Positions 10,606-59,647 of a stretch of 64,000 nucleotides of DNA are shown here, in pieces. This DNA comes from a virus (lineage: Duplodnaviria > Caudoviricetes): the IMG/VR virus record IMGVR_UViG_3300032290_001460, positions 32,001-96,000 of that record; one strand, given 5' to 3'. The notes beneath the pieces are model-generated. The model was given only the letters and a program-made list of their open reading frames with translations, was not told the DNA's origin and ran no database searches. The position numbers and the translations under genes were made by a program. How positions within the stretch are numbered: position 1 is the first letter of the stretch; each line of letters begins with the position of its first letter.

Positions 10606-13600
10606 ATGAGCCAAGGAACATTTGAAGACATCCATTTTAAGGCGATGAATGGCCAATTCAATATAGATGAGGCACAAGGAATCGTTGAATGTTTCGTTGC
10701 CGCCGTAGGTAACAAAGACTCCGTGGGTGACATCGTCGCATCGGGGGCATTTACAGAAAGTCTCAAGCGCCGCAAACCGCGCGTTGTATGGGGACACAAC
10801 TGGAACGACCCCATCGGTAAGGTTCTAGAAATTTACGAAGTACCAGCACACGACCCGCGTCTCCCAGGAAAAATGAAGCAAGCAGGAGTGGGCGGGCTCT
10901 ATGCGAAGGTTCAATTCAACCTTGCAACAGAAAAAGGTCGCGAAGCATTTGCTAGCGTCGCTTTCTTTGGTGGAGACCAAGAATGGTCTATCGGCTATAA
11001 GACTCTCCAAGCAAACTTTGACTCCGCCATGCAAGCAAACGTTTTGCGTGAAGTTGAACTGTACGAAGTGAGTCCAGTTCTTCATGGTGCAAATCAACTG
11101 ACAGCCACAATTTCCGTCAAGAGCGACGAAGGTGAAAAGTGCCACAGTCCTGCTATGGGCGCTGGAATGCCAATGATGCCAGCAGTAATGCGTGCTTTTA
11201 AACCAGGGATTCCAGAAGGTGGCCCATCGCGCATTTCGGCAAGAATTGGCTACGACGTTTCTAGTCCTCGTGAAGATATTTTTGCAGAAGGCGAAGCACG
11301 CGAACTTAATCGCGAAGAAATTTATAGACTTGAAGAAGAACTGATGTCACGTTCTAATAATCGTCTCAAGATTATCTCCGCAACTGAAAATATGGTCACA
11401 TTCCATCGGATGCTCCCCAATGGTTCATCAACGGCTTACCGTCTCCCATACCACTACGATACGGCTGTTAGACAATACATGTTTGGCAAACCAGAGAAGA
11501 TGGGACAAGGTCCTAGCCAGCCTCAACCACAAACAGTCGTTCCTATGCAGATGCCCAGTATGCCAATGTCTGTCAAGCCGAATGCCGTCAGCCCATATGC
11601 CATGGTTAACGGTGGATACGATGGCGAAAAATCCGTTGAAGAAAGACTCCATGAAGTTATTGCTGGCTTAAAGTTGCCGCTCTTCGACGATGAAGTAGCA
11701 GAAAAATCTCAACAAGATAAAATTGAGGAAGTAGTGAATCTTCTTCAATCCTATATTGAAGAGAAGAGCGAACCCATGCGTGTCATTATGAAATGTGAAC
11801 CGCATCAAGCGTTCCGTGTTAAGGAACTACTCGACCCGGTAATTGAGTATCACGGACTTCAGGCAGAAGTCAGTGAAAAGGGCGTCCATCTTTCAGGGAC
11901 ATTCAATGATGAAACACTCGATGCACTATATGCGTCAGAGAAAAGTATTCAACGGATGTTCATGAAAGAGGGTGGTTGGGGAAAAGATAACGGCCCTACG
12001 GGGCCGACCTTCGAAGTTGAAGTAAAAGCCCTCGGAGGCCGAGTTGGCCAAAGAATCGGTGGAGGCCTGAGTGCTGCACCACCAGGGATGGTTTGGGTTG
12101 ACGTAACCGGAGCCATAGATGGCGATAGCGATGGAATAGTTTTTGAGGGTACGCCTATGCAGCGTCCCATTATTCCTCGTGCGATGATTCCCAAGGTGCA
12201 GGCGTCTATACTTCAACAGACTTCCCTCCCCCGCGCTATGGAAATGGAGCGAAATAGGGTTCCTAAACCATCTGTTTCGCAAGAAGATTCCAAACCACGT
12301 TTAAATCAGGTTCCTAAAAAGAATGAATCAGATTCAGTGGTGCCTTCTAAGCCTATTCCAAAAATAGACGACACTATTCCAACACCCAGTAAGGCTCCTA
12401 AAAAAACTCAGGGGCGCAAATCAAGAAAAAGCCCTCCTACTAATCCGAATATATACGACCCGTGGGTTTATAGAAATTCAGGAACCGAGCGCATTCTTGG
12501 TAACGAATTCAGCATCATTACGCCACTAGATGAAATTATTAACTCTGTTAGTTCTAGAAGTAAAAAATTGACTCCTAAAGAAATTATTGACAATTATGCT
12601 TATTTCCTTAATTATAGAGGCCTAGACACTCAACAAGTTTTTAAAATTTTTGAAAACCATGGTTATGTTAATACTGAAAAAGTCAACCAAACCATATCTG
12701 ATGAGTTGAAATTTGCGATAGATGACATTATTGCGGCAGGCGGAAGAATTGTTTTTGCACAAAATAATCTTCTAATTAATTTGGGTGGCAATAAATTAAT
12801 AATTGATTTATTAGATAAAGATAGTTATAGTAATGTTAGACAGCAGTTAAGTATGCCCTTGAAGCAATTGTATGTAAAAGAAAGAAAGACAGTAACAAAT
12901 ATTTCGGACTTGTCTCCTAGGTATAATTATCTTAAGCCAGAATTGAAAAAATTAAAAGAAAAGTATGGCGATTATTTTGTTATACGCGCCCTGGATGCCG
13001 GCCATTATTCTGCTGTTCTTTTTGACCCCATCTCTGGTGACCCCCTAAAAACTTATCAATTTAGTGGTAGTCCACGAAGTACTTCTAACCTTTTAAAAAA
13101 CCTTTCTTCAGAATTTACAAATGCAGCCGTAGTTAGAAGATTTGAATCAGCAAAAATATGGAAGCCAGCGCGCGAAGTCATTGATAAAGTACCGTTGAGA
13201 CCAGCAAATGAAGGGGAAACCCCAAAATTCGGTCCGCTGAGTGGTACTTCTAAGTTGGTTCAGATTTTTTCTGAACTAGGTTTTTCGCCAGACAGTAAAG
13301 AATATCCTAATGCTCTCGTTGAATTAGAAATACATGATATTGGTGACGGAAAATTTGGTGTATATGGTGTAATCGTAGATGAAGATGGCATAGAACACCT
13401 CGTGAGCCAGGAGCAGGATGGTCTTGCAGATTCATTAGATTTTCTTCGTGCACTAGGTTCAGAATATTCTCAGTCGCAATTATCAGAAATGAGAAGTGCT
13501 CATCTAAGACGAATGGGGGTCGTTGGTCAATTGGGCGATACTTCTGGGTTGAGTCAAGAAGTTGAAGAAATGAGGGCTGCTCGTGATGAACGAACTTACA

Positions 13601-16600
13601 ATCAGTGGTTCGTTGATGATGGTAGTCGTTCGCAAAGAACACCTACCCTAATTTATAATACTGCCGCAAAATCTATAAGAGATATTTTTGATGATGAAAA
13701 AACATGGGACCCATTCTTTGAAGACCTAAAAGATGTTTTGGGTCATTCTCAAAAACAATCGCAACGCCTACTCGACCTCTACGATGACCCGAACGCTACA
13801 GAAGAGGCTATAACTAATCTTGAGGAATCAATTAGGGAATTAGATGAGCAAATTGCCGCCGTTATTGATTACGCAAAATTTTTAAATGGAGAAAATCGTC
13901 GCGCTCGTCTCAAAAGACTAAAGAATCCTCTTATTAACAAAATGATTGACGAACGTACTGGGGGCGAGTATTCGGATTTTACTGATGCTGAAATTGAAAG
14001 ACTTAGAAACAATCTGACTTTTTCCGAAAATGATATAAGCGATATCTTTGGCGTTGAGGGAAGCGATAAGGCTAGAAATTTCGTTGAATCAATGCAGGAT
14101 GTTTTAGATGATGCGGAATGGTATGACGGCATACTGAGCAGTCCTATAGAGGACGAGAATAACCCTGATTATTTGGAAAATCCATCTCAAGAACTTTACG
14201 ATGATGCTATTAGAAGTTTGAGCATGGAAATTGATTTCATAAAAGATGCTAGAAAGCGTAATCATCAACAAAGACTGGCTATTTCGGATGGTAGCAATTT
14301 ATCCGATGGCACCAGTCGCTCGCAGCGTTCCTTCATTAATGGACGTGGAGTGGGCGAAACTAGGCAGATTTTCCCCAATGAAGACAAACAGGGAACTAGT
14401 AAAAAAATTAAGTACGCTCGTTATGATGGGCGCAAAGAAGAACTGCTGGTTGAATATTCCTCTGGTGAAACCATCACCTATGGTGGAGTAACCGACAGGA
14501 TGGTTTCTGCAGTTGAGAAATCACTAGATGATATTGATGGCGGGATTGACGGGATAAAAGCAGAAGCACGCTATTCTATTAAACCAGATGGACAAATAGA
14601 AGGCAGGGCGGTTAGTGTAGCAACGCTAGTGCAGAGAGATATTGAACGTCTCGAACAATACGATGTTATTACTGCAAAAGATAAGTTATGGATGCAATTA
14701 GCAGCAAATGCCATATTGTCAAATTTTGAAGAACCGCCCGAATATGAACTATTATCCTTGTCTGACCAATTGGCTAATGTGGCAAATAAACTTGCTCGCG
14801 AATATGAAGAAAATTCTGCAGCCCTAAACCTTTTAGAAATTAAAAGTTCTATTGACGACAGAGTAGGCAATGGGCTTGGCGGAACTCGCGGTACACGCAT
14901 GTATCGTCCACTGAAGGATGAAACAACATTAGATTTAACCAATGACGAAATTGGTGAATTAAGAGACGAAATTCAATCAATTCTAAACAAACATGGAGAC
15001 AGAATTACTTTTGCTCCTTTTGCAGAATTTGACAAAGCGTTAAAGGACGCTCAAGATTCAAACAAAAATAATGTAACAATTAAAAATAATTTACATTCAG
15101 CATTAACCGTTGCTTACGATGAACTTTACTGGATGGCTTCACACAGTCAAGCAGAGAAAAGATGGCTCAACCCCATTGGGGAAACACTACTCAATATTGC
15201 TGCAGCATCCGGAAGATTCACCTCCCCACGCCTCAGTGCCAATAGGGGAGACTTCAAGGGCGTCCCATTCAATAATGGCGCACCATCAAGAATGACCCCC
15301 GAAGCACGAACTACCCTCATAGATTGGGCAAACGGAGACGGATTAGGGTTCTATGTTCTAAAAGACATACGTGATTCTTATCGACTCAGGAATGGAAATC
15401 TCACCTCGCGACAGTGGAACACTCTTGCGAACATGTACAGGCGCTTTGGTCCTGGTGGCAGTGACAGAAAAGACTCAAGTAGTAGAAGTAAAAAAGATAC
15501 AGAAATCTACTATGCCATTGTCCCTTCGGACGTCCCGGACCAAATTGACGATGAGGAAGAAGAAAAACCAAAACCCAAGAAGCCAGTAGGAAAACCTGCT
15601 TCAGAGTTACTGCCAGGCGACTTTGATTCAATGACTGCAAAAGAAAAAATTGATGTCATGTTTCAAATTGGACGTGCAACAAAAGATAATCCCGATGGCA
15701 TCGCCCCAGAAGATTGGGACAGACTAATTTATCCCCTAGACAAGGAACTTGATGTAGAAGAAGCAGTACAGAACCAAGCAGAATTCATGGCTGCACAAGA
15801 AGCCGCTGCAATGAGAGGCGAAGTACTAACAGAAGAACAGTTCTACGAAAACAAATCACGTCAAGCGGAATTACACGACAGAAGAACAATACAGCGTGCA
15901 TTAAGTGAATACGACGCTGGACGACCCGAGTTATTGCAAAAACTTGGCCTACGTAGAGAAAACTTTATTATTAAAGCAGATAGAGAATACAAGGCCCCCA
16001 CTAAGCCAAAGCCGTTAGGTAAATGGGCTACAGATTTCTCCATGAAGATACGTTCTCAAATAGAAAAAGCAATTGCCAATGGGCTTGCCGGAGAAGAACA
16101 TCTTGACCCATGGCTATCCATGGAAGAACTTATTAATGACAACGATGGTCTCCTTGATGAAGAAACTATCCAAAACATTATCCCTGTCCTAGAAGAATAT
16201 GTCAGTGCTTATGATGGGGCAGAATTTGGACATCGTTCAGAAGGTAATAGTTATAAACAAGCCAACGACATGATTGAGGAGTTGGAAAATACTCTTTCAA
16301 TTCTTCTTGACCCAACAATAATCGAAGACGATTCCGATGATAGCGGAGATGACAAGAAAGACAGCGACGCTGCCTCAGAAGTTCCAGATACAACTCAGGG
16401 AGTTTCTCTATCCATAGAGGGCGATAGTGGTTCAAAAAGCCGTCGCTCATCATCTATGGCAAGTACTACGGGCAGACAAGACGCTGTTGATTCCGGAAGT
16501 AACCAAATAAATTCCGAAGATAGTAGCAGGAGTATCCGAGAAGTAATCAAATTAGAAGATTTACTTGAAATAGATAAGCGCGAACAATCCGAAGATATGG

Positions 16601-19600
16601 GAGAACCATTCGTTGAGTTATCAAAGGCCCTCGAAAATTGGTTAAATAATCATATTTCAGATATGGGCGGATGGGACAAAAGTCACGAAACTCGACTACG
16701 TAGGCAGGTAGAAGATTTAATTTTGAATTTACGTGGCTTGCGAGACAAGTGGCAGTCCATGGGGACTGCTAAACGAAGCGGAATATTGAGACGCATGAAG
16801 ATGGTTGATGGCTACGAACCGCACCCTCTAACTAAAATGTCACTTGAAGATATCATTAGTAAATCAGAATTACGTATTCACGATGACGGAACTCTGTCTT
16901 TCAAATTGCCTCCCAACCCAATATTGCGGCAACTCATACCAGGCAACAGAAATTATCAAGATGTAGAGTTGCCCACTGCTGAAACTGTTAGTGAAATTTT
17001 TGATAATCTCACAAATGATTGGCGCAGATTAGATGAATTATTCAATTCAATATATGAAGTTTTTGATGAAGATGAAGACGGGCGACGTGGAGCGCGCCTA
17101 AGGAAATACCCTGTCGGCGGGGAAAAACTGCCGCACCACTCCTTGTATCTTGGCAAGTACGCTGAACCCCCGACAGAAGCACCATCTCCGGAAGGGGCGC
17201 TCCAATACCACTACAACGACATTTCTGCTCGTATTCTTCAGTATTACATTATCCCTGAATTAGCAAAAATTAAACGCAATGAAAATCCAAAAATTGGAGA
17301 AATCTCCAACGATAACGACCATTTTATTCATGGATATTTACAGTTATTTACAGACCCGCATGCCTGGCAGGAGATGAGTGCTGTGTTGTCTGAAAACTTC
17401 CGTGTATCGCCCGGCACCATATTGCATGACTTATTGGGGCACTACGCCCTTGGTAATACTTTTGATAGACACGGAGAATATGGAAATATTCTTTCAACAA
17501 TTCAACTTGCTCGCGATAAGAAGTTCTGGCAGAAGTTGCGCGAGATACCAGAACTTTCTGACCTATCCGAAGAGGACAGGGACCTCTACATGCGCGGCTT
17601 GCTCGTTGATGTGGCCGCAAGATGGTTTAATCGTGTCGGTACAGACTCCCCGGATGACGAGAGGAGATTGAAGAAGAAAATAGCGTTCTACGATGGACCT
17701 ATTGATGAACTTCTTGACAAAATCGACCCGCCTAACGAACAATCGTCAAGTTCTAGTCGTTCTACACGAAGAATCCCATTAATCGATGTCGATGATAAAC
17801 AACTTTCTGAGTTAGGTAAAGAATCTATTGATGGTATTGCAATAAGAGAAGAATTTATTAGACCATCTTCTCGTGACGAATTAGAACAATTTGTTTCACG
17901 AAGAAAACCGATAGGTTCGGACCTGCCTGTTGATTTACGCACTGGCGAACCTCGCCGCATGTCTCATGAGACAGACAGAGAGTGGAATGCTAGAAGAAAT
18001 AATTTTTATAGAAACAACCCATGGTTTGACCGGCCCCCTATTGATGCTTCTGAAGATTCCCCTAAAATTGATAGAAATAACGAATTTGGTGATGGAGAAT
18101 TAATTAAACCCTCATATAAATTTAATTTTAAATGGAACCAGTATCAAGATTATACTGATGAGGAATTAATAGATAAACTTAAATCAGACAAAAAACCTTC
18201 CAATACTTTGGTGCATGAATTGTCTTTACGTGGATATGAAGTTAGAAAAAAAAGAGAATATGATTTAGGTGATTTTAGTGGTAGGGAAGGATATGACTAC
18301 ACATACTTCTTTGCTAAGCCAATGGATGAAATAACCCAAGAGCATCTTGATAGAAGAAAATCTAAATACAATCCAGTTGATGAAACACAAAAAATAGATG
18401 AGCCGTCAACCAGCATAATTCCTACATTGGAAGAAGACGTTGTTGATGAACAGGATTTTGTTGAGCCAGAAGAATTCCCATTAAAGCCGAAACAGCCCAG
18501 GGTTCCTCGTCCTCGACCCGGTACCAACACCGTGAATATTGGTGGCAATAATTCGGGAATCATAAATCTCGGCAACAATGTGACAATTGATACTGGCGAC
18601 ATAAATGTTTCTAATCAGGGCAGTAAGATTACTATTATTAATGGGAACAAGGTTACTGTTGATGCCAATACGGATGTATTGAGTATGCCATTGAAAAAAG
18701 TTGATGAAGAACTTGCTAGCATACAGAAAGATTTAGCGGAACTTAAAGAAAGAAGAGTAAAGGGCAGTATTTCTGATGCTGATTATGCTCAGCGACGCGT
18801 AGATTTGGCTAATAGGAAAGTTGCTCTCAAATTAAAGAAACATTCCGTCCCTGATGGTGATGCAACCAAGGGCACACCCAATGTTTCCTATATTGGCAAC
18901 AGTTCAAGGTCAACCAGAAATATTGATTATTATCGTAGGGAATTTAATCTTTCTCCAGAAGATTTGGAATTCATCAAATATACCAATGCCCCAGATTTAT
19001 TTTTGCGTGAAGAATTTGGGATAGACGATACAGCCATAGCAGACATTCGTTCTTATGTGCCGCCGTTGGATGTCATCAAGGAAATAGATTCTTTAACCGA
19101 TGATGATGTTAGATTCCTTGAATCTTACGATGGTATTGTTTCACAAATTACTGAAGAATTTAATTCTTTTGTAACTCGGACGATGGCCGAACGTCTTCAG
19201 GCTATTCAATACATAGGAAATTCTAATCTCCCTGAATTGGAAAAACAAGAAAACATAAAAGAAATTGATGATGCATTTAATGAATTATTAAAAGTTAACA
19301 GTGAAATACATTTCGATAGGCTGAATGATGCCGTACTATATACGGCACCTTTAAATTATCGCGGTTTTGGTTGGAGGATGACCCCAGAAAGAATTTCTTC
19401 ACTTGGCTTACCTGAAGGCTATGAAAACAAATTAAAGTTCAATCAGGCTACTCGCATTTGGGAAATGATGAATGGACTGGGCTTTGACTGGGACGAAATC
19501 GAAGATTTCACTGGTTTGACTTTTGATGAATTGAAACCCCTATTCCCACATGTCCGAATTATCGGGATGATACGCGAACAGGAGAAAAACTCTTTAAATA

Positions 19601-25954: not shown

Positions 25955-25986
25955 TTCATAGTTCTATTTAGGGATTGGAGCCCGGT

Positions 25987-36591: not shown

Positions 36592-37249
36592 GTTTGAAAT
36601 GGACGAATTTGAAGTGAAGGCTCCACAAGACGCCATCTTGGATTTACCACAAGAAAAATTTACAGGCGATGTACTCAAGGGCCGTGGACCCCGGCGAGGC
36701 AATCTGGAACGTCTCCTTCGCTACTGGCGTCCCATTATGCGCAAACCAGGCGGCTTTAGGCGATGCAAAGTCATCCTGGCAGACCATCCAGAACTGTATC
36801 CATTAAATAATATTTGCGCATGGCTACACCATGAAACTACAGGCTTATGGCCCAATGAGGGGTGTCATCACCCTGGAATGAAGAATTGTAAACGTAAACT
36901 GAAGAAAGTTTTCAATGGTTCTAAGTGGAATGACAAGGAATGGGATTCCATGATGAATCGTCGGTTCAAGCCACAAGGTAAGTCGTTGCCATTTGATGAT
37001 GAGATGTTCTTTTCTGATTCTTGGCATACAAAGACGGCCATTATTGTTATCCCTGGCGAAAATCATGTCGTGACACTCGATGACATGGCTCATGCAATGA
37101 GAGTTCTGAAAGATTTTTGTGAGATGGAATCAGATTTTGTTGAATTTTTGCGAAACAACGACAACTGGGACATGTTAGGAGAAGACGGTATGGGGAACAT
37201 GATGAAGTCACTCGTACCGCTGGACGAGGATTGCGGTTGCGATAAATGA
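36584..37249 (+). CDS. Phage head-associated protein with Cys/His motif
   Basis: GN.ERL.RYW, GGFRRC, CAWLHHETTGLWP: a motif set I recall from phage capsid-maturation region proteins. Alternative start 36572. Confidence 0.65.
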   Translation: MDEFEMDEFEVKAPQDAILDLPQEKFTGDVLKGRGPRRGNLERLLRYWRPIMRKPGGFRRCKVILADHPELYPLNNICAWLHHETTGLWPNEGCHHPGMKNCKRKLKKVFNGSKWNDKEWDSMMNRRFKPQGKSLPFDDEMFFSDSWHTKTAIIVIPGENHVVTLDDMAHAMRVLKDFCEMESDFVEFLRNNDNWDMLGEDGMGNMMKSLVPLDEDCGCDK

Positions 37250-49370: not shown

Positions 49371-49406
49371 CAATAATTTTACTTATTGCCAAGGAGGAGG
49401 TGTGTT

Positions 49407-50996
49407 ATGAAATACGAATATAGTTCTACTAAAAATAAACTATGGTTAAAGACTTTGCCAAGAAAAGTTAGATTACTAATGCCTACAATAGGTAAGAAAT
49501 CTCTTGGTGGTTCTATTGGAAGGGCTGGAGAACCTTTTGACCCCAATGCGTTTGATGGTGATATGGATGCCTTGGTCCAAGAAGGAACCCCATGGGAGCG
49601 CCCAGCAACACCATCTGTTCCTAGGGGTGCTCGCAATATCGTGAAGCCTTCTATTATGCCGATTGAACTAGAAGGAGTGCGTTCTGTTCAGACCCCTAGT
49701 AGTTCACGTTCAGCGCGAGGCCCCTTGAACTTACCCGACCCATTGCCGCCCCCATTAGAGAATGATGCCGTCGTTGATGAGTCTGGATTTGATTTCGTTG
49801 ATTCCCTTCATGCAATTGTTGAAAGGAGCCCTAAGAAACTTGGGTTAAGAAGTCAAGAGTTACAGACGTTGAAGAAGATAAAAGATAGAGACTCAGATAC
49901 AGAACTATGGGAAGTTTCTGATTTTCTTGACAATGAGACTATTCGTTCTGAATTGAAAAAACATATCTCCGAACGCATTGGGAGTAAGTTTGCTGAGAGA
50001 GCACGCGAAGATGACGACTTTTTACAAAGTTTGCTCTTGAGTTCAATTGCCCCTACTCATGGCTTATGGTCGGATATTACTGAAGCCCTTAAAGGCGATG
50101 ACATTGAGGAAAAGAGACAGAAGTTACAAAAACTTATGTCTGGCACTATGGATAAAGTTACTCCAAGTCAGAAAAGTTTTATTAAAGAGTCTATTGAGTG
50201 GCTATCTGATAGAAGTAAGAAGAAATCTGAATCATTTGATAAAAAAATTGATGTTTTGGCAATTAATAAGGCTAGTGAATATATTAACGAGTGGGCTAAT
50301 AGTTCTAATAATTCTCCTCGCTCAATGGCTTTACAGCGCATGGCCATTCAGGAATTCGGCTTGGAAGATGGAAGTTACTATCCAGAAGATTTGTTACCTC
50401 TTTCTGGGCAGAGTCTTAACGCTCAATCTATGAAACAAAGAACAGACGAAGAAGTGGACATGAATGGGATGCTTCAACGCGAATTCCTGCGCATACAGTA
50501 TGAAGAAACTCAGAGAATGCTCAAAGAACTCAATGTTCAGTCATTGTCTGTTGCAAGAGGTATGACAGTTGGCGAGAATAGTCAACTCATAAAAGATATG
50601 AATTCCACCAATCCTGATTGGAAAGAAAATAATGTTGGGGTAGAGAAACCTCTTACATTACGTCCGCTTTCTTCGTGGGCTACAAAATCATGGGAGGCTA
50701 TGAAATTTGCGTCCCCCCTGGAAGAGGGTAACGAAAATGTTCTTGCAGTAGCAAACGTACCCGCAGAGCAAGTCTTATCCCTCTCAACAACAGGGATTGG
50801 ATGTTTGCCTGAGTGGGAAGCAGTTTTAGTGGCGGCGCCGGTGAATGCCAGAATATTCAATATGCCAGAGAATATTGATGATGTTGAGAATGCGGAAGAA
50901 TGGTTAATGGACCCAGCGTCATACGAAGAAAATTCTGACTTTGACTTAGATTCACTCTACGACGACGATGACGATGACTTTGACTACGAAGACTAA
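49407..50996 (+). CDS. DGDxDG-tag protein with C-terminal R-S-E type ADP-ribosyltransferase-like domain
   Basis: KSLG..FDPNAFDGDMDALVQEGTPWERP; SSSRSAR; VARGM (R), LSSWAT (S), LPEWEAVL (ExE). AGGAGG lies upstream of ATG 49407; track start is 49386. Confidence 0.72.
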   Translation: MKYEYSSTKNKLWLKTLPRKVRLLMPTIGKKSLGGSIGRAGEPFDPNAFDGDMDALVQEGTPWERPATPSVPRGARNIVKPSIMPIELEGVRSVQTPSSSRSARGPLNLPDPLPPPLENDAVVDESGFDFVDSLHAIVERSPKKLGLRSQELQTLKKIKDRDSDTELWEVSDFLDNETIRSELKKHISERIGSKFAERAREDDDFLQSLLLSSIAPTHGLWSDITEALKGDDIEEKRQKLQKLMSGTMDKVTPSQKSFIKESIEWLSDRSKKKSESFDKKIDVLAINKASEYINEWANSSNNSPRSMALQRMAIQEFGLEDGSYYPEDLLPLSGQSLNAQSMKQRTDEEVDMNGMLQREFLRIQYEETQRMLKELNVQSLSVARGMTVGENSQLIKDMNSTNPDWKENNVGVEKPLTLRPLSSWATKSWEAMKFASPLEEGNENVLAVANVPAEQVLSLSTTGIGCLPEWEAVLVAAPVNARIFNMPENIDDVENAEEWLMDPASYEENSDFDLDSLYDDDDDDFDYED

Positions 50997-51005
50997 GGTA
51001 AACAA

Positions 51006-51227
51006 ATGAGTAAAAACAATAAACCGATATTCGTCAATGAGAATACTTTAACCAACAGGCAATTTGACTTAGATGCAAGCAATCTTGAAGAGTTGGCAAG
51101 ACTTATTGGGGTAGCGAAAGATAGCCCTGAATTTGACGAGTATTTAACTGAGGCAAATAAACTATCTTGGGTAGAAACCGCCCCTAAAGATATTCGGGAT
51201 GCCATTAGGGCACGCGAAGTAAAGTAA
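51006..51227 (+). CDS. Small hypothetical protein (candidate immunity/partner)
   Basis: 73 aa, AAGGT Shine-Dalgarno, follows the ART-like gene. Confidence 0.6.
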   Translation: MSKNNKPIFVNENTLTNRQFDLDASNLEELARLIGVAKDSPEFDEYLTEANKLSWVETAPKDIRDAIRAREVK

Positions 51228-51236
51228 AATACTACA

Positions 51237-54173
51237 ATGCGCCCCCGTATACGTTCCACGAGATTCTATCTTCCTTCAACGAAAGCCCTAGGCGGCTCTA
51301 TTGGTCGTCTCAATGAACCTTTTGACCCAGATGCCCTCGATGGGGATGAGGATGGCATAGTTCAGGATGGTACTCCTTGGGAGCGCCCGGGAATACCTGG
51401 AACGCCTAGTATCTCTGGTGGCAAGATGAGGGATGGGTCAAAAAGAGAGATTACTGCGTCCTCTGATATTGACAACACTGAGGAAATCGCCACGCCCAAT
51501 GATTCCTCGGAACAAGTCCCAGTCTCGGATATTACCTTAGAAGATATCGTTGATGAACTTTTAGAAATTCTAACTCCCGAATTCTTAGAAGAAATAAATA
51601 AATTTGGGGAAGAATTTATGTTTGGCTCTGGTCGCAATGTTAGAAAAACAGTTCAAAACGTTGATGAGTGGCGCGAGATACAGGATGCCGAGTTAGTTAC
51701 CGTTGACGTGTTCGAACCAGGGGAAGGACCGGGGGAAACTAAATACCCCATTCCAAAAGGGAAATACACCATAGGCTCACCTTCGATGATGAAGGCAGAA
51801 GAGCGAATTAGGGATGTTGGGATGAGGGTCGTCCAAGGATTGATGAATTTTCTTTCTGGTTCTAGGGAGAATAGAAAAAAAATGCTCGAAGAGGCAAGGG
51901 GCCGTCTTGAAGAGTACAGAGAGACTCAAAGAGAAGTTACTGAAAAACTTGGGCTTGTTACCTGGGCTAGAAAATGGGAAATGCGTTATGCTGATGAAGA
52001 TTCAAAAGAAAGGGGTAATTTTGCGAGACAACTTTATGACACGGCTAAAGAATTATTTGGTAATCATCCAGACTTGAGCCCGGATGCTGATTTTAATGAA
52101 ATTGCAATGACTAGGTCTGAAGATGTGAACTATATTGTCAATAAATATCTTTTAAATTTACTTCAGTCAGATGTTTTCAAGGCCATCGATGAAGAAGATG
52201 GGGAAGAAAGTAATATTTTTGTTAATCAGATAAATAGGCTGAAAAAAAATATTAAAGAATATGAAAAATCTTCTCGTGAAATACCGGGAGTAATTAAAGA
52301 GGACTTAGTGAGATTGCAACAATCACTTGATGAATCGATGGCTGTTAGGAAGAAGTTGATTAACCAATTAAATGATGTTGCCACTAAGCCCATTGACCCA
52401 ATATACGATGATGAAATCATTATAGAAGATTTGACTACTGAAAGTGGAAAAGAATTTTCTAGAATAATCAATGAAGAACTATTGCCTATTTCAAGAAAAA
52501 TACTTCTACAGTATCGAGATATAGAAGTAAAACTAGATGAAGAAAAAATGGATGATGTCAAACGTCAAACCGGCATGAGCCATATTGACGCTAGGGATTT
52601 AGGGGAAATTATTAATTCCGGTGGCGCCGTAATTCCATCTAAAGTAAATTCGCGAGCAGTTACTGCAAATGAAATTATGGATGAAATTAGCCTTTTGCAA
52701 AACGCCAAAATTTCTGAAGTGATAAAAGATATTGAAGAAAGAATAGTAGAAACTGAACGTCCAGCACTGCTTCGTAAAATATTTCCTACAGGATATTGGA
52801 AGTATGATTCAAAAACTAAAAAACCTGTCAGAAATGCGCGAAGAGAAGATGGCTCTCTAATTTTCGCCACTCCATTGACCGTGCTGTTTGCGGGCAAATC
52901 TGGCAATGGCGTGATAAAAGAAACTTTTCAAAAAGCATTAAAATCTTTTGAAATATCCAGCAAGGATATTGATGCTTATTTAAATTCATATCATGTATCA
53001 GATGAGAGTCGCGATAATGCTATGTCTCTTTTGGGGCGACGTACTGAAATAATTGACGAGATGCAAACAATTTTACGTGATGTTTTTGAAGATTTGGAAA
53101 AAAATTATCCTGACTTAGCAGAGCAATATATGATGGGTGGCTTAAATGCCCTGAAAGAGATTGCTCGCAAGGTGCCAGAAAGTAGCACTAGTCAAAAATG
53201 GAATGACTATATGCAAAAAATGGTAGAACTAAATAAGGAATTACAAAAAATTTTATCTGATTTAATAGATGTGCTTTCTCCTGAAGAAAAAGATAAATTA
53301 AAAAAATTGCGGGAAGATTTAGAGCAGGCAAAAGTTAAAAAAGGTGATTATATTCTAGAAAAAATTTCATCATTATCAGCAGAAATTGATGAATTATTGG
53401 CTGATAAGCCACTGACATTTTCTCAAGAATTTAAAAAATCTTTAATTAACATATTAGAAGAAATGGGCATATCTCCTTCAAAAGATTCTTTATTGGACGT
53501 AAGTAAGCCAACAATAGGTGATGGCTCCATGAAGACGACTGAAGCAAATGTTGAAAAATTTAAACAACATATTAGTGAAATTGTTCCCGAACCAATTATT
53601 CAGTTATTAAATCTTTTTCTAAAAAATAATCCTCATACGGTTCGTGCATTAACTGTCGATGAAGTCGGTGATAGGGCTGGCCATTGGAAGAAGGGTTCTC
53701 GGCAGATAGCAACAAATTTTGAGCAAAAAGTAAACTTGCATGAATTTATGCACATGATGTCAACTTATTTTCCGTTTGCATCAATGGCTGAGCAAGCGTT
53801 TCTCTATAACCGCGGCTTAAGGGGCGAGAAAGGTTCTTCCGTAGAAGAGAGAATGGTTGATTTAGACTTTGAAGATGCCGTCTACTGGCAATACTCGGCG
53901 ACTCTTGGTATACGACAGCCAGCACCCGGAGTTCGCGATTATAGGAGTAGTGACTATTATATAGAAGATGAATTTGATAAGAGATATACTGGGCGAATCT
54001 ATCCTAGAGATGAACCAGAAGATTTTGCTACAGAGGTTCTCAGCACTGGAATCGAAGTTTTAGCAGACACCTATACCGGTACGGACTTTCCTGACTACGA
54101 ACATCTTGCTTTAGTGATAGGTGTCCTAATAACTGCTGGTATCATGTCTAGGGATGGAATAGCAAAAATATGA
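51237..54173 (+). CDS. DGDxDG-tag protein with long helical region and C-terminal zincin
   Basis: KALG..FDPDALDGDEDGIVQDGTPWERP at the N-terminus; HEFMH (53739)...D.F..RYTGRIY...TEVLSTGIE. Confidence 0.75.
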   Translation: MRPRIRSTRFYLPSTKALGGSIGRLNEPFDPDALDGDEDGIVQDGTPWERPGIPGTPSISGGKMRDGSKREITASSDIDNTEEIATPNDSSEQVPVSDITLEDIVDELLEILTPEFLEEINKFGEEFMFGSGRNVRKTVQNVDEWREIQDAELVTVDVFEPGEGPGETKYPIPKGKYTIGSPSMMKAEERIRDVGMRVVQGLMNFLSGSRENRKKMLEEARGRLEEYRETQREVTEKLGLVTWARKWEMRYADEDSKERGNFARQLYDTAKELFGNHPDLSPDADFNEIAMTRSEDVNYIVNKYLLNLLQSDVFKAIDEEDGEESNIFVNQINRLKKNIKEYEKSSREIPGVIKEDLVRLQQSLDESMAVRKKLINQLNDVATKPIDPIYDDEIIIEDLTTESGKEFSRIINEELLPISRKILLQYRDIEVKLDEEKMDDVKRQTGMSHIDARDLGEIINSGGAVIPSKVNSRAVTANEIMDEISLLQNAKISEVIKDIEERIVETERPALLRKIFPTGYWKYDSKTKKPVRNARREDGSLIFATPLTVLFAGKSGNGVIKETFQKALKSFEISSKDIDAYLNSYHVSDESRDNAMSLLGRRTEIIDEMQTILRDVFEDLEKNYPDLAEQYMMGGLNALKEIARKVPESSTSQKWNDYMQKMVELNKELQKILSDLIDVLSPEEKDKLKKLREDLEQAKVKKGDYILEKISSLSAEIDELLADKPLTFSQEFKKSLINILEEMGISPSKDSLLDVSKPTIGDGSMKTTEANVEKFKQHISEIVPEPIIQLLNLFLKNNPHTVRALTVDEVGDRAGHWKKGSRQIATNFEQKVNLHEFMHMMSTYFPFASMAEQAFLYNRGLRGEKGSSVEERMVDLDFEDAVYWQYSATLGIRQPAPGVRDYRSSDYYIEDEFDKRYTGRIYPRDEPEDFATEVLSTGIEVLADTYTGTDFPDYEHLALVIGVLITAGIMSRDGIAKI

Positions 54174-57100
54174 ACATGAACTGGACTTTCACAATAGGGG
54201 ATAAAGACTATTCCGCCACTTATGACAATGCTTCTTTTGTTACGGATTCTCCACTCGTTGAATACTACGTGAACAAATTAATCGATGACAGAACTGTCGT
54301 CGAAATAGGCGATGTAGGCCCAATGGCTACCGCATCCTTTGAAACCGATGCTCACGCATGGGGAACAATAACGCACGCTATCAGGAAACTAGCCAACATA
54401 GGCTCAGGCAAATATCCATTCTCACCATTAAACGGCGAAGACGAAATAGTTAAACCTGATGATAAAGAACCAAAAACCAAGTCACTAGGACCATCCCTTG
54501 GTGGCGTCAACGAACCATTTGACCCTAATGCTTTCGATGGCGACAACGACGGCATGGTGCAAGACAGCACTCAATGGGAAAGACCTGCACTACCAGGTCA
54601 AATTCCAACAGTAGTGTCGCAAGAAGTTGCTCGGCCTGTGAGTTTAACCTTCACTGGGCCAGACCCACGAATTTTATATCCAGACATGGTAGGCAAAACT
54701 GGCTCTGCTAGATATGGGAATTCCCCATCTATACGCATAGAGCATCCTCTATCTCCAGGCAATGACATTGCTTTTGTTTCCGTTAGAGACTTAATGAAAC
54801 TCCCTGGGAATATGCCAAATGATGATGGGGAGATTATTTTTGAAGAACGCGTTGAAAAATTGAGACAAGAACTTCTATCGAATGGATTCCGAAGCCCGAT
54901 TGATATTGCGTACGACCCGACAACGGGCAGAGCATACGTATCAGAAGGCAACCATAGGCTTCATGCGGCATTTGCTGCAGGATATTCCTATATTCCTACA
55001 ACTATTTTTCCTATGCGAATTAATGAGAATCGTCCGGCTTTAATCATTACAAAAGATTTAGATAAATGGCCGTGGAGAGAAACCGCAGATGGCGTTTACT
55101 ACAATAAAAATCATATGAGGGAAAGATACTTGGAGCGAGAAGATGCTTGGCCCCCATTCGCCCCATCGGAACAAGATAAGAAACATATACCAAACATGAG
55201 AATTCACCCGTTGTGGGTTCTTCCTCAAGGAAGTATTGCAGGAGAAATTAGCGATAACGGTGTTTGGGGTCCATTGCAGCCAAATGCAATAGAGCCATTG
55301 ACGGACACTTCGCGTTCCAAGCGCGAATTCAGTTTCTTCCCTTCCCTAGGAAAAAAGAATAGGGTAAATAAGAAGGCCTTAAGCCAAGTCGGTCCTTATC
55401 CCGTTGTTGGTGATGTTGACTATCCTTCTACGACGCATAGGTTTAAAGTACATGGTTATGAAACATTATGGGCAGTACCCGAAGTTGGTGGACTCAACCC
55501 TGGAGAAATGCTACTTATCAGAGATTATTCAGATGAAATAAAAAATTTTCATCACATTGAAGGAATATCTGATGGATTAGTCCGTATGACAAAAAGTGGA
55601 CAAGTATTATTCACAATTTTGTCACCCGAAGAATCTGTTGAATTACGTGAAAGTATCAGCACGGGGAAGCCTCTATCCGCATCCATAGAACAGCGCATAT
55701 CAGACAGGTTTGTAAAAATACCTGGTGAAGATGGAACCATTGATGATGCTATTGATTTTATGTACTCGATACTTCCATCAAATATAACTAAACCTAAACA
55801 GATTTCTTTGTTTGAACAAGAGGTTATAGACGAATTCACTTATCCGGATGGGCAAAAAACAATAGTTACAGTGGATGCACATGCTAGTCACACTCAAAAA
55901 TCAATGACTTTTTGGAACGGCCATACACCTACTGAATCACTTGAAACAATGCGAACGTTCTTTCATGAACATGGCCATATGATTGACCCAATACCACCTA
56001 TGTATTACATGGTTCATCCAACTGCTACGCAGATGCTGGGCGACTCTCCCGAAAAGCCAATGTATTTCAGCGATTCAATAGCATGGGGGGCTGCAGTGGA
56101 GCGTGATAGCCAGGTCGCTCATAGTATGATTTTAAAAAATGCATTAATTCATCCTGAAACAAGAACACGCATGAGTTTTATTTCTGGCAAGAAGGCTGTT
56201 AGTTTATATGGCACAACTGATGTTCGGGAGGATTTTTCTGAAGCATTGGCAATGTATTTGATAGATAAATTCTATGGCAGTTTTGTTATAAATGAAGAAT
56301 TGGGCACAAACGTCAGATTTGCTCAACTGTTTCCAAATAGGGCACAATTTTTTGATGACGTTATAGGAACATTGTATAGTTTTGATGAGCCTCTTGAAAA
56401 TTTAGTTAAAGCGATAACTACGGGTGATTTCAATGCTATTAATAGTTCACGCTCTAGTCGTATAGTTCCTTCTAAATCAACTTTAATACCTGATGGAATA
56501 TTCGATGTCGAAGAGCCACGATTTGGAAGCGTTCAAAAATTAGTAAGATATACCATGGACAACCCAGAGATAAATGTTTTTCTTTTCAAAAATGCCGCGT
56601 TAAGTCCAAGTAGTTCACAAAAAACTGAGTTTGGTATTGCCGTAAAACATTTAGTCCCAAACAATTTACTTAGTCGCGATGGACACTTTATATCGGTTGA
56701 TATTTCCGAAAGTGAATTTGAAGAGTTATCAACGAGCATGGTTCTTGGTAATGGAATCCCACAGGAAATATCTAATAGAATTAATTCAAAATTAGATATT
56801 ATTCGTAATCAGATGCAAAAATTGCATGCAGTTTTACCGGATGGCGCTGTTTCAAAAATGAGTTTCATACATGCAAGTGAAAAAAGTCTATTCTTGCCAT
56901 GGGTGGATGTAGACGGCCAGGCTGTTACGCAAATTTCTAACGGCCTTGGCCAAGAACCACGCAATTTTATTGCAATTTATAGTTTAAATAGACATACCGA
57001 AAGTCATTTAAGCGATGTATTAGCGCACGAACTCGGGCATATCCTTGATAGAGATGGTGGGCGAAACTATAAAAAATCATTTGTTAATGAATCTAATAGA

Positions 57101-59647
57101 TGGCTAAAAGCAAGAGCAAGTGATAAAAAAACTTTTGAAACATTTAGACAATTACTTGATGACGAAATACTTGTTCCAATTTCTAGAGATTCTGCCGTCC
57201 CAAATATACGTAAAGGGAAAAAAGGAATAACAGAATATGGCGGCACAAGTGATAGTGAAGATTTTGCTGAAACAATAAAATTGTATATATCAGACTTGCG
57301 GAATAGTGGTTTATTCAGAAATAAAGATACTAATGAAATGGTCCGTTTTTCGGATATGTTCCCTAATCTTCATGGAATGCTTAAAGAATTTTTATCAACA
57401 TACGAAACTAATACAACCGATAAGGAAGTTATAGAAACAGTAAGCGACAGTTCTTTCTCACGGCGTTCTAGTGGGTTTTCTAACGGGACGTGGAAAATCG
57501 AAGGAAATGTCGTGCAGGAAATTAGTAAATGGCCCGATAAAAATACACCTCAGGGTAAAAAAATCCTTGATAGTGCCGAATTCAAAACACAGGTGGCATT
57601 GCTGGATGCAATGAATATTTGGCGAGGTAGTTTTAGTGACAGTAGAATGTTGGCTCGTATTCTTGGTGGTCTCAAGCCTCCAGAGGGAACTCAATACGTC
57701 GACGACAGGTTTATGAATATAGCACGAGTGCTTGATGGTGCTCTTGAAAATGCTCCCACTATTTCTGGTCAAGTTACTATCGCCGGAAAATCCATACCAC
57801 TCCCCCTGTATCGTTCGATGCGATTAACGCCAGATGTTTTCGATAGCATAAATTTTGGTGTTGGCAGCGAATTGAATTTTAGGGCTGCTTCAGCAGCATT
57901 TAGGGCCGATGTTGCGGCACAGTACAACATTGATGAATTAACCAATTTAGGTATTCGTGGAGGAATGCCTAAGAAAATCATTGTTCAGTTGCCCAGTGAT
58001 ACCAAGGGGCTAGTTTTTGATGATAGAAAAACTATCGTTGCGGACCAATTTAATGAACGCCCAGTAGAAGCAATCATTCGTGGAAACTTTAGGGTCGCTT
58101 CAGTCAAAACAATAACTATGCGCGACCCAATAACACGCAAGGATATTGAACAAGAAATTCATGTTATGGAACATATTGAACCGCCGACAAGTTCTCGTTC
58201 CACTAGACGTAAATATCACACAACGAATACACGACTAGACATCGGCGACTTTATTGTTTCACCTCGTAAGTCTGGCAAGGAGAATGAAAGTTCTAGTCAG
58301 ATAGATTTCAATGATTCTTCAGTGGTTTACGCATCTCCCAATTTTGCTGATGTGACTAGAGGAATCGAAGATTTTGCTAGTTCTGGCAGATATAAAGATA
58401 GTAACGGGCCTCTCTATATGTATCAAATTGAGGACACATCTCCAGCGAGCCTTAGTAGCGACACGTTCCCCCGTAATGAACTATCAATGACGTCATCTAG
58501 GGTGGAACGAGGCAAGGTCACTGGCATTTATAAGGTTTCCGATGATGGCGATGCTTTCATGTTTTCTGGTGGCTCGCGTTCAAGACGTAAGGGCGCAGGA
58601 GTACCAGCATCCAAGCCTAAAGATACACGCAGAGCAATAAGAGGCAAAATTGTTTCTGGTCGTCAGGGAATTGACGAAGATGGACTTACTCCAGAATTCA
58701 TTCAAGCCATGGAGTCAAAAATGGAAGAGATGGGTCTTTCTAGGGAAATGTTTCAAAAGACTCTTGATGATTTTTTAAAAACTTTAACTAGAACTAATAT
58801 CGATATTGGTAAAAGATGGTACCCATTCGTTAATCGTCGAATGAGAGATATGGTCGAAGATTTAAATAATAGATATGGTACTTCTATAACTTTCGAGCAG
58901 GGCGCCGCCGTAATGGCAGCGTTATCTCCTTTGAGGGAAGTGAATGAAAATATCAAGGCGGCAAAATTAATTTTAAGAACTTTTGCTGCTGATGAAGATT
59001 TTGAGATAACAGAAGAATTATTAAGTAAGTTAAAAATTTCAAAAAAAGAAGTTGAGATTTTCCTTGCTCGTGCTGGCGATGGAAAAATTAGACCTTCTGA
59101 ATTTAACGATGACGAAATAGAAATACTCATAGGTTTGAATCTTGGTTTTCTTAAAGCCGGAAGTGTTGATGGTCTTGCGAATATTAAAAAATCAATTTTT
59201 ATTTTGAGAGATAAAAATTCAATAGATGATGTGCTTAAAGGGCCCAAAGTCCGTTCTTTTTATTCTAATATCGTAGACCCAAATGGAACTAGAGTGACGA
59301 TTGATACATGGATGTATAAAATGATGGTTCCTCCAGATGTAAAAATATTATATAAAGGGCAAGAATTAACACTTGCCGAACATTTGAACATAAAGGGACC
59401 CGACGGCAAGAAAGTAAATAACGTTCAAGCGATGTTCCAAGCAACGCCACAAAGCAAAAAATTGGGTGGACAAATTGGTTTATACCCCATATTTGCTGAA
59501 TTGATAAGAAATGCAGCAATAAAATATAATATTCCTCCCTCTGCTCTTCAGGCAGCACTTTGGGAAAGGTTCAGGATGCAACTTTCTAATTATCAGCCAA
59601 CTGATTGGGATGAAGTTGCTGGACTTTTTGATTTGGATGTAGAATAA
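54170..59647 (+). CDS. Polyvalent protein (1825 aa): tag, ParB/Srx, two zincins, VIP2-like ART, Arr-like module, helical glycosylase-like domain
   Basis: KSLG..DGDNDGMVQDSTQWERP; SEGNHRLHAA (54947); HEHGH (55964); HELGH (57026); LYRSM..VEAIIRGNFRV; YHTT..L.IGD.I..VYAS..YMYQIE; WYP..AAVMAALSP..L.GPKVRSFYSNI..VTIDTWM..LQAALW. Confidence 0.8.
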   Translation: MNMNWTFTIGDKDYSATYDNASFVTDSPLVEYYVNKLIDDRTVVEIGDVGPMATASFETDAHAWGTITHAIRKLANIGSGKYPFSPLNGEDEIVKPDDKEPKTKSLGPSLGGVNEPFDPNAFDGDNDGMVQDSTQWERPALPGQIPTVVSQEVARPVSLTFTGPDPRILYPDMVGKTGSARYGNSPSIRIEHPLSPGNDIAFVSVRDLMKLPGNMPNDDGEIIFEERVEKLRQELLSNGFRSPIDIAYDPTTGRAYVSEGNHRLHAAFAAGYSYIPTTIFPMRINENRPALIITKDLDKWPWRETADGVYYNKNHMRERYLEREDAWPPFAPSEQDKKHIPNMRIHPLWVLPQGSIAGEISDNGVWGPLQPNAIEPLTDTSRSKREFSFFPSLGKKNRVNKKALSQVGPYPVVGDVDYPSTTHRFKVHGYETLWAVPEVGGLNPGEMLLIRDYSDEIKNFHHIEGISDGLVRMTKSGQVLFTILSPEESVELRESISTGKPLSASIEQRISDRFVKIPGEDGTIDDAIDFMYSILPSNITKPKQISLFEQEVIDEFTYPDGQKTIVTVDAHASHTQKSMTFWNGHTPTESLETMRTFFHEHGHMIDPIPPMYYMVHPTATQMLGDSPEKPMYFSDSIAWGAAVERDSQVAHSMILKNALIHPETRTRMSFISGKKAVSLYGTTDVREDFSEALAMYLIDKFYGSFVINEELGTNVRFAQLFPNRAQFFDDVIGTLYSFDEPLENLVKAITTGDFNAINSSRSSRIVPSKSTLIPDGIFDVEEPRFGSVQKLVRYTMDNPEINVFLFKNAALSPSSSQKTEFGIAVKHLVPNNLLSRDGHFISVDISESEFEELSTSMVLGNGIPQEISNRINSKLDIIRNQMQKLHAVLPDGAVSKMSFIHASEKSLFLPWVDVDGQAVTQISNGLGQEPRNFIAIYSLNRHTESHLSDVLAHELGHILDRDGGRNYKKSFVNESNRWLKARASDKKTFETFRQLLDDEILVPISRDSAVPNIRKGKKGITEYGGTSDSEDFAETIKLYISDLRNSGLFRNKDTNEMVRFSDMFPNLHGMLKEFLSTYETNTTDKEVIETVSDSSFSRRSSGFSNGTWKIEGNVVQEISKWPDKNTPQGKKILDSAEFKTQVALLDAMNIWRGSFSDSRMLARILGGLKPPEGTQYVDDRFMNIARVLDGALENAPTISGQVTIAGKSIPLPLYRSMRLTPDVFDSINFGVGSELNFRAASAAFRADVAAQYNIDELTNLGIRGGMPKKIIVQLPSDTKGLVFDDRKTIVADQFNERPVEAIIRGNFRVASVKTITMRDPITRKDIEQEIHVMEHIEPPTSSRSTRRKYHTTNTRLDIGDFIVSPRKSGKENESSSQIDFNDSSVVYASPNFADVTRGIEDFASSGRYKDSNGPLYMYQIEDTSPASLSSDTFPRNELSMTSSRVERGKVTGIYKVSDDGDAFMFSGGSRSRRKGAGVPASKPKDTRRAIRGKIVSGRQGIDEDGLTPEFIQAMESKMEEMGLSREMFQKTLDDFLKTLTRTNIDIGKRWYPFVNRRMRDMVEDLNNRYGTSITFEQGAAVMAALSPLREVNENIKAAKLILRTFAADEDFEITEELLSKLKISKKEVEIFLARAGDGKIRPSEFNDDEIEILIGLNLGFLKAGSVDGLANIKKSIFILRDKNSIDDVLKGPKVRSFYSNIVDPNGTRVTIDTWMYKMMVPPDVKILYKGQELTLAEHLNIKGPDGKKVNNVQAMFQATPQSKKLGGQIGLYPIFAELIRNAAIKYNIPPSALQAALWERFRMQLSNYQPTDWDEVAGLFDLDVE

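Follow-up and report, generated by a model that had tools for sequence, protein, structure and literature searches.

What does a short peptide, S-R-S-x-[R/K], do in the giant proteins encoded between the portal and capsid genes of an uncultured phage, where it recurs again and again? The stretch analysed here (the window, 64,000 nucleotides) comprises bases 32001–96000 of one 106,308-bp virus contig, IMG/VR record IMGVR_UViG_3300032290_001460, and position numbers refer to the window. The peptide is found in 24 copies, 23 of them non-overlapping, in six plus-strand open reading frames (ORFs) between the portal and capsid genes. Comparison of sequences suggests that it represents, in this lineage, a linker peptide which occurs throughout the family in lineage-variable forms and joins cargo modules, and we infer, with a probability of roughly 0.62–0.65, that it is a proteolytic processing site of cargo polyproteins addressed by a tag. 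We favour this reading because relatives carry peptides of their own at homologous positions and because all 212 sites in 43 of their tagged proteins lie downstream of the tag.

Recurrence of the linker peptide

The recurrence is real and highly non-random. Composition alone predicts 0.84 copies against the 24 observed, and shuffling gave means of 0.88 (whole proteins) and 0.94 (locally, over 30 amino acids, aa), with a maximum of 6 in 2000 shuffles. Nearly all SRS tripeptides (24 of 26) continue with x[RK], and the permuted control motifs RSSx[RK], [RK]xSRS and TRTx[RK] occur in 0–1 copies. No SRSx[RK] copy is present in the other ORFs of at least 100 aa across the whole contig, including those of the portal, TerL and the major capsid protein (MCP). 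A position-specific scoring matrix (PSSM) derived from the sites gives the 23 of them 15.4–23.9 bits, with three variants next, apart from everything else. Since the Ser and Arg codons differ freely among copies, the conservation is at the protein level; a DNA-level repeat or recombination site was ruled out, the codons differing at every copy. The peptide SKSQR at nucleotide (nt) 60850, in a 353-aa protein before the MCP, was also rejected as a site, as a relative aligns straight through this region without any motif.

These figures agree with a sequence-only reading of the window made earlier by a model. Its 23 copies were recovered by exact count (24 with one overlap), its approximate starts all lie within 3–9 nt of the exact ones, and the variants that it had named (SKSRR, SLSKK and SFSRR) rank directly below the sites in the PSSM. 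The absence from portal, MCP and TerL that it had noted extends to the other contig ORFs of this size, and its view that conservation is at the protein level is borne out by the codons. The comparison that it had proposed, with shuffled proteins and the rest of the genome, gives 24 copies against ~0.9 expected and zero elsewhere on the contig. Its main claim, a polyprotein processing site, has gained strong comparative support from the tagged proteins, the inter-domain coil and the replacement of the motif between lineages.

Sites and module boundaries

The motif marks module boundaries. Two AlphaFold models were used for a structure overlay, one of aa 1367–2400 of the 3362-aa ORF and the other of aa 300–1499 of the 1825-aa ORF. 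In the first (mean predicted local distance difference test score, pLDDT, 67.5), confident domains are parted by long coil of pLDDT<50, which contains all four sites. The second model is weaker (mean pLDDT 52); its five sites or variants all lie in low-confidence segments, one of them within a 39-residue gap separating two confident domains. Given 29% and 56% of low-confidence residues, respectively, the joint chance of finding nine out of nine sites at pLDDT<50 is ~4e-4. No Pfam domain match in the window ORFs straddles a site. In the 2740-aa ORF, ArdC-N and MPTase (aa 1548–1816) fall between the sites at aa 1526 and 1875, and in the 1825-aa ORF matches from a library of 1.84 billion proteins stop 3–29 aa short of the sites at aa 760, 1095 and 1342. 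The domain-boundary placement claimed in the sequence-only reading is supported by the overlay, with all nine modelled sites in coil and no Pfam domain interrupted.

The domain labels of that reading survived in part: zeta toxin with pentapeptide repeats, ArdC-N with MPTase, two zincins, an ADP-ribosyltransferase (ART) fold and DUF7178 were recovered, and the ParB, Arr-like and HipA-like kinase labels were left unconfirmed. The order in the 2740-aa ORF is DUF3721, tag, zincin, zeta toxin with pentapeptide repeats, ArdC-N (PF08401, E 1.1e-29) with MPTase-PolyVal (PF18818, E 5.7e-37), an unknown part and a PI3/4-kinase-like region. Fold searches back the zincin and ART folds of the 1825-aa ORF, and more weakly a C3-like ART fold in the 3362-aa ORF.

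A common address tag

A ~45-aa element of consensus K[AS]LG..[IV]G..PFDPNA[FL]DGDxDG[ILMV]VQ[ED]GT..[EQ]RP, here called the address tag, is found once in each of seven otherwise unrelated proteins: six cargo proteins and a 1435-aa ORF after the MCP (63609–67916, extending past the window end). The 3362-aa ORF has no address tag, despite its four sites. In all five window ORFs that carry both tag and motif, the tag lies upstream of every site. The tag is present in 136 ORFs of 108 related loci, and in 43 distinct tagged ORFs of the relatives none of 212 lineage-motif sites is N-terminal to it, against 41.7 expected. Its DGDxDG core resembles a calcium-binding loop. The tag is probably a capsid-targeting element, and the layout of a tag followed by separators parallels the capsid-targeting sequence of T4 followed by a gp21 site.

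Linker peptides of the relatives

The relatives compared are ~160 partial IMG/VR loci, which share the protease N-terminus (40–99% identity) or the MCP (71–85%). SRSx[RK] is present only in the two closest of them (99% and 87%). Each of the remaining relatives has its own recurring peptide in its giant ORFs, so that more than ten lineage-specific peptides were seen: G-M-R-S-R (up to 22 copies), G-S-K-S-T-T, R-G-F-S-S-x-T, G-F-A-S-x-S, G-L-A-S-x-S, L-R-S-S-G, G-A-R-S, R-G-M-A-S-R, S-T-R-S-S, G-L-S-S-G, I-S-G-R-M and P-T-A-S-M. Giant proteins from the big protein library likewise carry recurring peptides of their own. In most motif classes a Ser is preceded by R/K/A/S, with a hydrophobic residue one further back (S or T in this lineage). 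A furin-like R-x-x-R was ruled out as a general rule, as most of the relatives' motifs have no basic residues.

Where modules are shared, the relative's own peptide occupies the aligned position for ten sites of this phage. At aa 1576 of the 3362-aa ORF relatives show RLASGR or SLRS[AS]G, and at aa 2190 of the same ORF seven of eight relatives have their own motif just upstream of a shared cassette. The doubled site of the 539-aa ORF is aligned with GMRSRT, GMASRR, SLRSGQ, GLASRK or GFASRS, and the variant SSFSRR at aa 1095 of the 1825-aa ORF is a canonical SSRSQR in the 85%-identical relative P0001. Comparison with the 87% relative (L004) places one site of this phage inside a 13-aa indel. 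In addition, a ~300-aa module (20491–21402) is bounded by a decayed SLSKK and a canonical SRSKK, and L004 joins the same flanks by a single motif; the alignment indicates that this module was gained or lost with its ends precisely at the linker.

Proposed course of processing

In the mechanism that we propose, a cargo chain would enter the prohead by means of its N-proximal address tag, which in the largest chain is placed after the S78 prohead protease itself. The chain would then be cut at every linker, freeing ~29 products of 108–1577 aa from the tag-bearing N-terminal pieces. These products would comprise zincins, ART folds, a zeta-toxin-like kinase with pentapeptide repeats, ArdC-N with MPTase, winged-helix arrays and many unknowns, and they would exit the virion together with the DNA. 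The scissile bond presumably adjoins the Ser kept by nearly all classes. A cut at R↓S would match K103↓S104 of HK97 gp4; mature HK97 gp5 begins at Ser104.

Which enzyme reads the linker

Among the candidates the fused S78 prohead protease ranks first, tentatively and at rather less than even odds. Its domain scores 46.7 bits against a curated cut-off of 21 (Pfam Peptidase_S78), and in alignment with HK97 gp4 its His64 and Ser128 fall on the catalytic residues His65 and Ser114. It is found in all five large related records, against two of five for MPTase-PolyVal and one of five for the zincins of the 1825-aa ORF, both of which are absent from the single complete relative (137.8 kb; 8–12 ISGRM sites). 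HK97 gp4 cuts gp5 at FNK↓SLGSD and herpesvirus assemblin cuts at A↓S; both the K↓S and the A↓S resemble the [R/K/A/S]-Ser core of most lineage motifs. Among the relatives the motif class follows the protease clade, a pattern that shared descent alone could also produce.

Several observations weigh against this assignment. The own-lineage motif is absent from the MCP maturation region in 19 of 19 lineages, where the own-lineage position weight matrix gives −6 to +5.6 bits on the MCP junction, no better than on the rest of the MCP. Between all the motif classes the catalytic domain keeps 70–83% identity and 103 invariant columns, and no protease column separates the basic-P1 from the small-P1 classes; a domain so nearly constant does not easily fit with linkers that keep S, R, S and R/K at all 23 sites here and quite different residues in other lineages. 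Tape measures of five out of five relatives, from five classes, carry their own lineage motif (P 0.0004 to 0.07 each) just after a conserved N-terminal ~600 aa, and this phage has SSRAKR there. Since the tape measure is not a prohead component, the reader must act also outside the prohead, or after ejection, or be another enzyme. The contig is ~71% complete by CheckV estimate, and another protease may lie off it. Regarding the MCP itself, a match made by eye between its FK↓SIGDEF and the K↓SLGSD of HK97 proved unsupported, the BLAST alignment beginning at MCP aa 163, and a conservation break at ~MCP aa 100 is the only remaining pointer to a cut.

Other results count against the processing-site reading as a whole. 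Two weaker tests of the boundary placement did not reach significance: the composition of the site flanks does not differ from background (Kyte-Doolittle p 0.83, TOP-IDP p 0.1), and ends of BLAST high-scoring segment pairs lie near sites 30 times against 15 expected (p ~0.06, the ends not being independent). A search for cultured relatives with tag or linkers found none, and the tag is absent from Gordonia phage ChisanaKitsune.

A marked tape measure beside an unmarked MCP, and indeed the marking of everything ejected, would be explained if the site were cut not by the prohead protease but in trans by a zinc metallopeptidase of the cargo, inside the capsid or after ejection, which we consider unlikely. 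The cargo holds eight HExxH motifs against ~0.45 expected, the MPTase-PolyVal match is strong, and the 978-aa protein combines a tag with a zincin motif and no SRSxR, as might be the case for a processing enzyme that has to remain intact. Cargo zincins vary between lineages, as a reader changing with the motif should, and autoprocessing by MPTase has been predicted (PMC5512222). However, no zincin is common to all relatives, the counts being those given above; HExxH occurs in only 11 of 54 tagged non-protease ORFs of the relatives, although such absence is weak evidence, the loci being partial and zincins of this kind barely recognised by Pfam. Moreover, the 978-aa protein has no homolog beyond the tag in 160 loci, and cis-autoprocessing fails for the 539-, 536- and 4421-aa proteins, all without a recognisable zincin. 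It is doubtful, too, that the linkers form a fast-changing "cleavage code" with a dedicated reader distinct from both the conserved prohead protease and any known host protease. Such an enzyme could be a zincin of the cargo that is specific to the lineage, or a core protein not yet recognised as an enzyme, for example the product of the 673-aa gene; it would act on all ejected proteins, those of the capsid cargo and the tape measure included, possibly only after ejection, with the chains travelling as single threads and being cut into a set of effectors in the new host.

Phage proteins can also be trimmed by their host, as are the capsid proteins of Staphylococcus phage 80-alpha by the protease PrP. 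Linkers cut by a host protease, during assembly or on entry into the next cell, would account for marked head cargo and a marked tape measure without any phage enzyme, as well as for an unrelated MCP site, and lineages may differ in host. We regard this as quite improbable: relatives with capsid proteins 71–85% identical use peptides as different as SRSxR, GFASxS and ISGRM, housekeeping proteases of related hosts seldom diverge so far in specificity, and the strict order of tag and then sites points to a virion-centred process. The peptide might finally be left uncut, as a recognition or modification element of flexible linkers in chains that stay whole, such as a place where a packaging or ejection factor docks, or a Ser modified by a phage kinase, ADP-ribosyltransferase or glycosyltransferase. 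Nearly every lineage motif retains a Ser, proteins of kinase-like, ART-fold and glycosyltransferase type are encoded by the phage, a common ejection signal is conceivable for head cargo and tape measure, which are both ejected, and the N4 virion RNA polymerase, a polyvalent protein, is packaged uncut (PMC5512222). Yet one copy per boundary, with none inside domains or ahead of the tag, is how a separator would be distributed rather than a docking site, module indels fall exactly at motif copies, and chains of 2740–4421 aa mixing unrelated enzymes are hard to imagine working uncut. An uncut element is therefore improbable, and the processing site is preferred.

Comparison with known systems

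The chains resemble polyvalent proteins, giant chains of unrelated effector domains encoded beside virion genes and predicted to be DNA-delivered and peptidase-processed (Iyer et al. 2017, PMC5512222). MPTase-PolyVal, ArdC-N, ART, zeta-like kinase and DNA-binding domains are common to both. Disparate activities are present in the 2740-aa and 1825-aa ORFs, together with signature domains, and all of these ORFs are placed between the portal and MCP genes on the contig of a myophage. In that paper neither a linker nor a cleavage motif is named (the word "linker" occurs 0 times), and it does not describe an address tag, a lineage-variable code or a marked tape measure; its assemblin-like peptidases are at the C-termini of a few polyvalent proteins, whereas the S78 domain here is N-terminal. 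In the literature searched, no description was found of a linker or cleavage code in polyvalent proteins, of an address tag or a marked tape measure, or of tape measure cleavage by a prohead protease.

In the systems of T4 gp21 (IPI-III, Alt) and phiKZ gp175 / SPN3US gp245, a head protease recognises a short consensus, L/I-x-E or A/S/G-x-E, in many internal proteins, an N-terminal targeting part is cut off and the products are ejected (PMC5694885, PMC7411985, PMC10052503). The present system is similar in having a head protease of HK97/assemblin fold in the head module and a putative targeting part upstream of the first site. There, however, the capsid protein is matured at the same motif and cutting is confined to head proteins; most substrates are single proteins with one trimming event or a few each, and the motif is stable across those families. 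Here the MCP is unmarked and the tape measure marked, chains hold 5–10 unrelated modules, and the motif changes between close relatives. HK97 gp4 (Peptidase_S78/U35) is matched by the S78 domain, by its aligned catalytic His and Ser and by the gene position after the portal. Unlike gp4, the protease here is fused to >4200 aa of cargo, and the tail that Gordonia phage proteases retain at their C-terminus is carried by the next gene, that of the 598-aa protein. The Dar system of phage P1 (DarA, DdrB, Hdf) also loads anti-defence proteins into the head and processes them proteolytically (PMC5512222), but from separate genes, with no repeated linker and no common tag of this kind. Polyproteins of RNA viruses (3C/NS3-type sites) are alike in principle, with one chain, a short site at every boundary and the protease at one end; there is no homology, and in this DNA phage the products are accessory cargo and not replication machinery.

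Genomic context and cargo

The contig is that of a myophage; minus-strand genes upstream of the window encode a tail sheath, tail fibre-like proteins and a tape measure of 1528 aa. In window order, TerL and the portal are followed by ~50 kb of plus-strand ORFs (4421, 598, 3362, 174, 225, 673, 539, 2740, 536, 978 and 1825 aa) and then by the HK97-fold capsid gene, whose product begins with a ~100-aa delta-like region (Table 1). The closest cultured matches of the MCP, portal and protease are in phages of Gordonia, Brevibacterium and other actinobacteria, at ~40–48% identity, and those phages also hold an accessory block between portal and MCP, smaller than the one here. A large group of uncultured myophages encodes giant cargo polyproteins of this kind among its head genes. 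The extra N-terminal region of TerL has weak DnaC-like or primase PHROG matches (aa 39–119), and upstream of TerL a minus-strand set (350–5123) encodes a dCMP deaminase, a RuvC-like resolvase, a PD-(D/E)XK (Cas4-like) nuclease and a Rad52-family annealing protein.

Within the 4421-aa ORF, a Met/Pro/Gly-rich low-complexity region with PGMP repeats (11200–12000) lies between the S78 domain and the tag and differs in length among relatives (e.g. L004, L052, L065). The last 825 aa of the chain (21394–23868) form a winged-helix/helix-turn-helix array (LexA_DNA_bind, MarR, AsnC-type, IclR-type), which would be packaged transcription-factor-like cargo. In the 1825-aa ORF, the zincin and ART-fold pair at 56453–58198 matches, at fold level only, two-domain bacterial toxins of Certhrax / lethal-factor architecture (Foldseek E 4e-7), and the linker between the two is the decayed SFSRR.

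Two proteins of the block without tag or motif deserve mention. Gordonia phage gp30, a capsid maturation protease, has its counterparts on two chains here. Its N-terminus matches the S78 domain of the 4421-aa ORF; its ~70-aa C-terminal tail is not on that chain and matches the end of the separate 598-aa protein, whose last ~70 aa are 53% identical to it. From this arrangement it looks as if an ancestral protease-scaffold gene had been split and cargo inserted between its parts, and the 598-aa protein is a probable scaffold or adaptor. The 673-aa gene is found in nearly all relatives of the MCP set and is fast-evolving (36–49% identical where the MCP is 73–77%); its product has invariant Cys, His, Asp and Ser residues. 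Searched for as a hidden protease, it gave no match in Pfam, PHROGs, NCBIfam, a PDB profile search or the ESM Atlas.

Table 1. Positions of genes, domains, address tags and linker sites. Residue numbers (aa) refer to the ORF named; L-numbers are loci of relatives.
Feature	Position	Strand	Remarks
Tape measure, 1528 aa	contig 17296–21882 (locus L164:1296–5882), outside window	minus	GDSSRAKRT at aa 643–651
TerL, 823 aa	5651–8122	minus	without motif
Portal protein, 695 aa, without motif	8410–10497	+	PF04860 E 2.4e-47; phrog_2662
4421-aa polyprotein: S78 protease, Met/Pro-rich region, address tag, 9 sites and 2 variants, winged-helix array last	10606–23871	+	
Peptidase_S78 prohead protease domain, aa 22–174	10669–11127	+	PF04586 E 5e-12; BLASTP to HK97 gp4
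Address tag, 4421-aa ORF, aa 473–532	12022–12201	+	
Site SRSKK, 4421-aa ORF, aa 650	12553–12567	+	kept in L004
Site SRSQR, 4421-aa ORF, aa 1007	13624–13638	+	L006 aligned position: GSKSHT
Site SRSQR, 4421-aa ORF, aa 1237	14314–14328	+	aligned: L014/L032 GMRSK, L006 GSKSRT
Site SRSKK, 4421-aa ORF, aa 1626	15481–15495	+	within 13-aa indel absent from L004
Variant SKSRR, 4421-aa ORF, aa 1943	16432–16446	+	PSSM 11.9 bits
Site SRSIR, 4421-aa ORF, aa 1974	16525–16539	+	L004: SKSVR
Site SRSTR, 4421-aa ORF, aa 2384	17755–17769	+	
Site SRSTR, 4421-aa ORF, aa 2767	18904–18918	+	
Site SRSMR, 4421-aa ORF, aa 3007	19624–19638	+	
Variant SLSKK, 4421-aa ORF, aa 3296	20491–20505	+	left edge of ~300-aa cassette missing in L004
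Site SRSKK, 4421-aa ORF, aa 3595	21388–21402	+	right edge of the same cassette
598-aa acidic, Met-rich, PepSY-like protein without tag or motif	24158–25954	+	
3362-aa polyprotein, 4 sites, untagged	25975–36063	+	C3-like ART fold between sites aa 1576 and 2076
Site SRSQR, 3362-aa ORF, aa 1576	30700–30714	+	model residue 210, pLDDT<50 coil 180–258
Site SRSMR, 3362-aa ORF, aa 2076	32200–32214	+	model residue 710, coil 695–721
Site SRSQR, 3362-aa ORF, aa 2190	32542–32556	+	model residue 824, coil 809–854
Site SRSQR, 3362-aa ORF, aa 2371	33085–33099	+	model residue 1005, coil 999–1034
673-aa core gene of block; no tag, motif or family	37246–39267	+	
539-aa tagged protein, one (doubled) site	39270–40889	+	
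Address tag, 539-aa ORF, aa 199–238	39864–39983	+	
Doubled site SRSSRSVK, 539-aa ORF, aa 299–306	40164–40187	+	overlapping copies start at 40164 and 40173
2740-aa polyvalent protein	40893–49115	+	five-part layout, divided by linker sites
Address tag, 2740-aa ORF, aa 205–258	41505–41666	+	
Site SRSQR, 2740-aa ORF, aa 592	42666–42680	+	many relatives' alignments begin at aa 590–612
Site SRSKR, 2740-aa ORF, aa 1526	45468–45482	+	22 aa before ArdC-N; relatives: GMASRS, GMRSAK or GSKSST
Site SRSKR, 2740-aa ORF, aa 1875	46515–46529	+	59 aa past MPTase; L090: GMRSKI
Site SRSTR, 2740-aa ORF, aa 2253	47649–47663	+	
536-aa tagged protein, one site	49386–50996	+	
Address tag, 536-aa ORF, aa 26–79	49461–49622	+	
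Site SRSAR, 536-aa ORF, aa 107	49704–49718	+	
978-aa tagged protein without motif	51237–54173	+	HEFMH at aa 835
Address tag, 978-aa ORF, aa 6–57	51252–51407	+	
1825-aa polyprotein: tag, zincin, zincin, ART fold, 127-aa unit, DUF7178	54170–59647	+	
Address tag, 1825-aa ORF, aa 101–143	54470–54598	+	
Site SRSKR, 1825-aa ORF, aa 381	55310–55324	+	pLDDT<50, in uninformative model region
Site SRSSR, 1825-aa ORF, aa 760	56447–56461	+	library matches end aa 731–757; model residue 461, coil 458–501
Variant SFSRR, 1825-aa ORF, aa 1095	57452–57466	+	model residue 796, gap between two confident domains
Site SRSTR, 1825-aa ORF, aa 1342	58193–58207	+	3 residues past end of ART-fold domain
Site SRSRR, 1825-aa ORF, aa 1469	58574–58588	+	DUF7178 begins aa 1520
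HK97-fold MCP, 439 aa, without motif	62000–63319	+	phrog_10; 40% identical to HK97 gp5
HExxH motifs			3362-aa ORF aa 727, 3110; 2740-aa ORF aa 457, 1740 (MPTase-PolyVal), 2172; 978-aa ORF aa 835; 1825-aa ORF aa 599, 953

Implications for the phage and its family

If the linker is truly a cutting site, about half of the contig (some 49 kb, 14,400 codons) would be a capsid-loaded arsenal of ~29 proteins in six chains. The prediction by Iyer et al. that polyvalent proteins are processed can be put to a specific reporter assay. A motif that differs between close relatives and a marked tape measure both bear on where, and by which enzyme, the linker is read. As parts for loading foreign proteins into capsids, the tag and the linker could also be of use. 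Finally, the punctuation by linkers offers a route, from sequence only, to the module boundaries in hundreds of giant and otherwise unannotatable phage proteins, and lets their swappable anti-host modules be catalogued.

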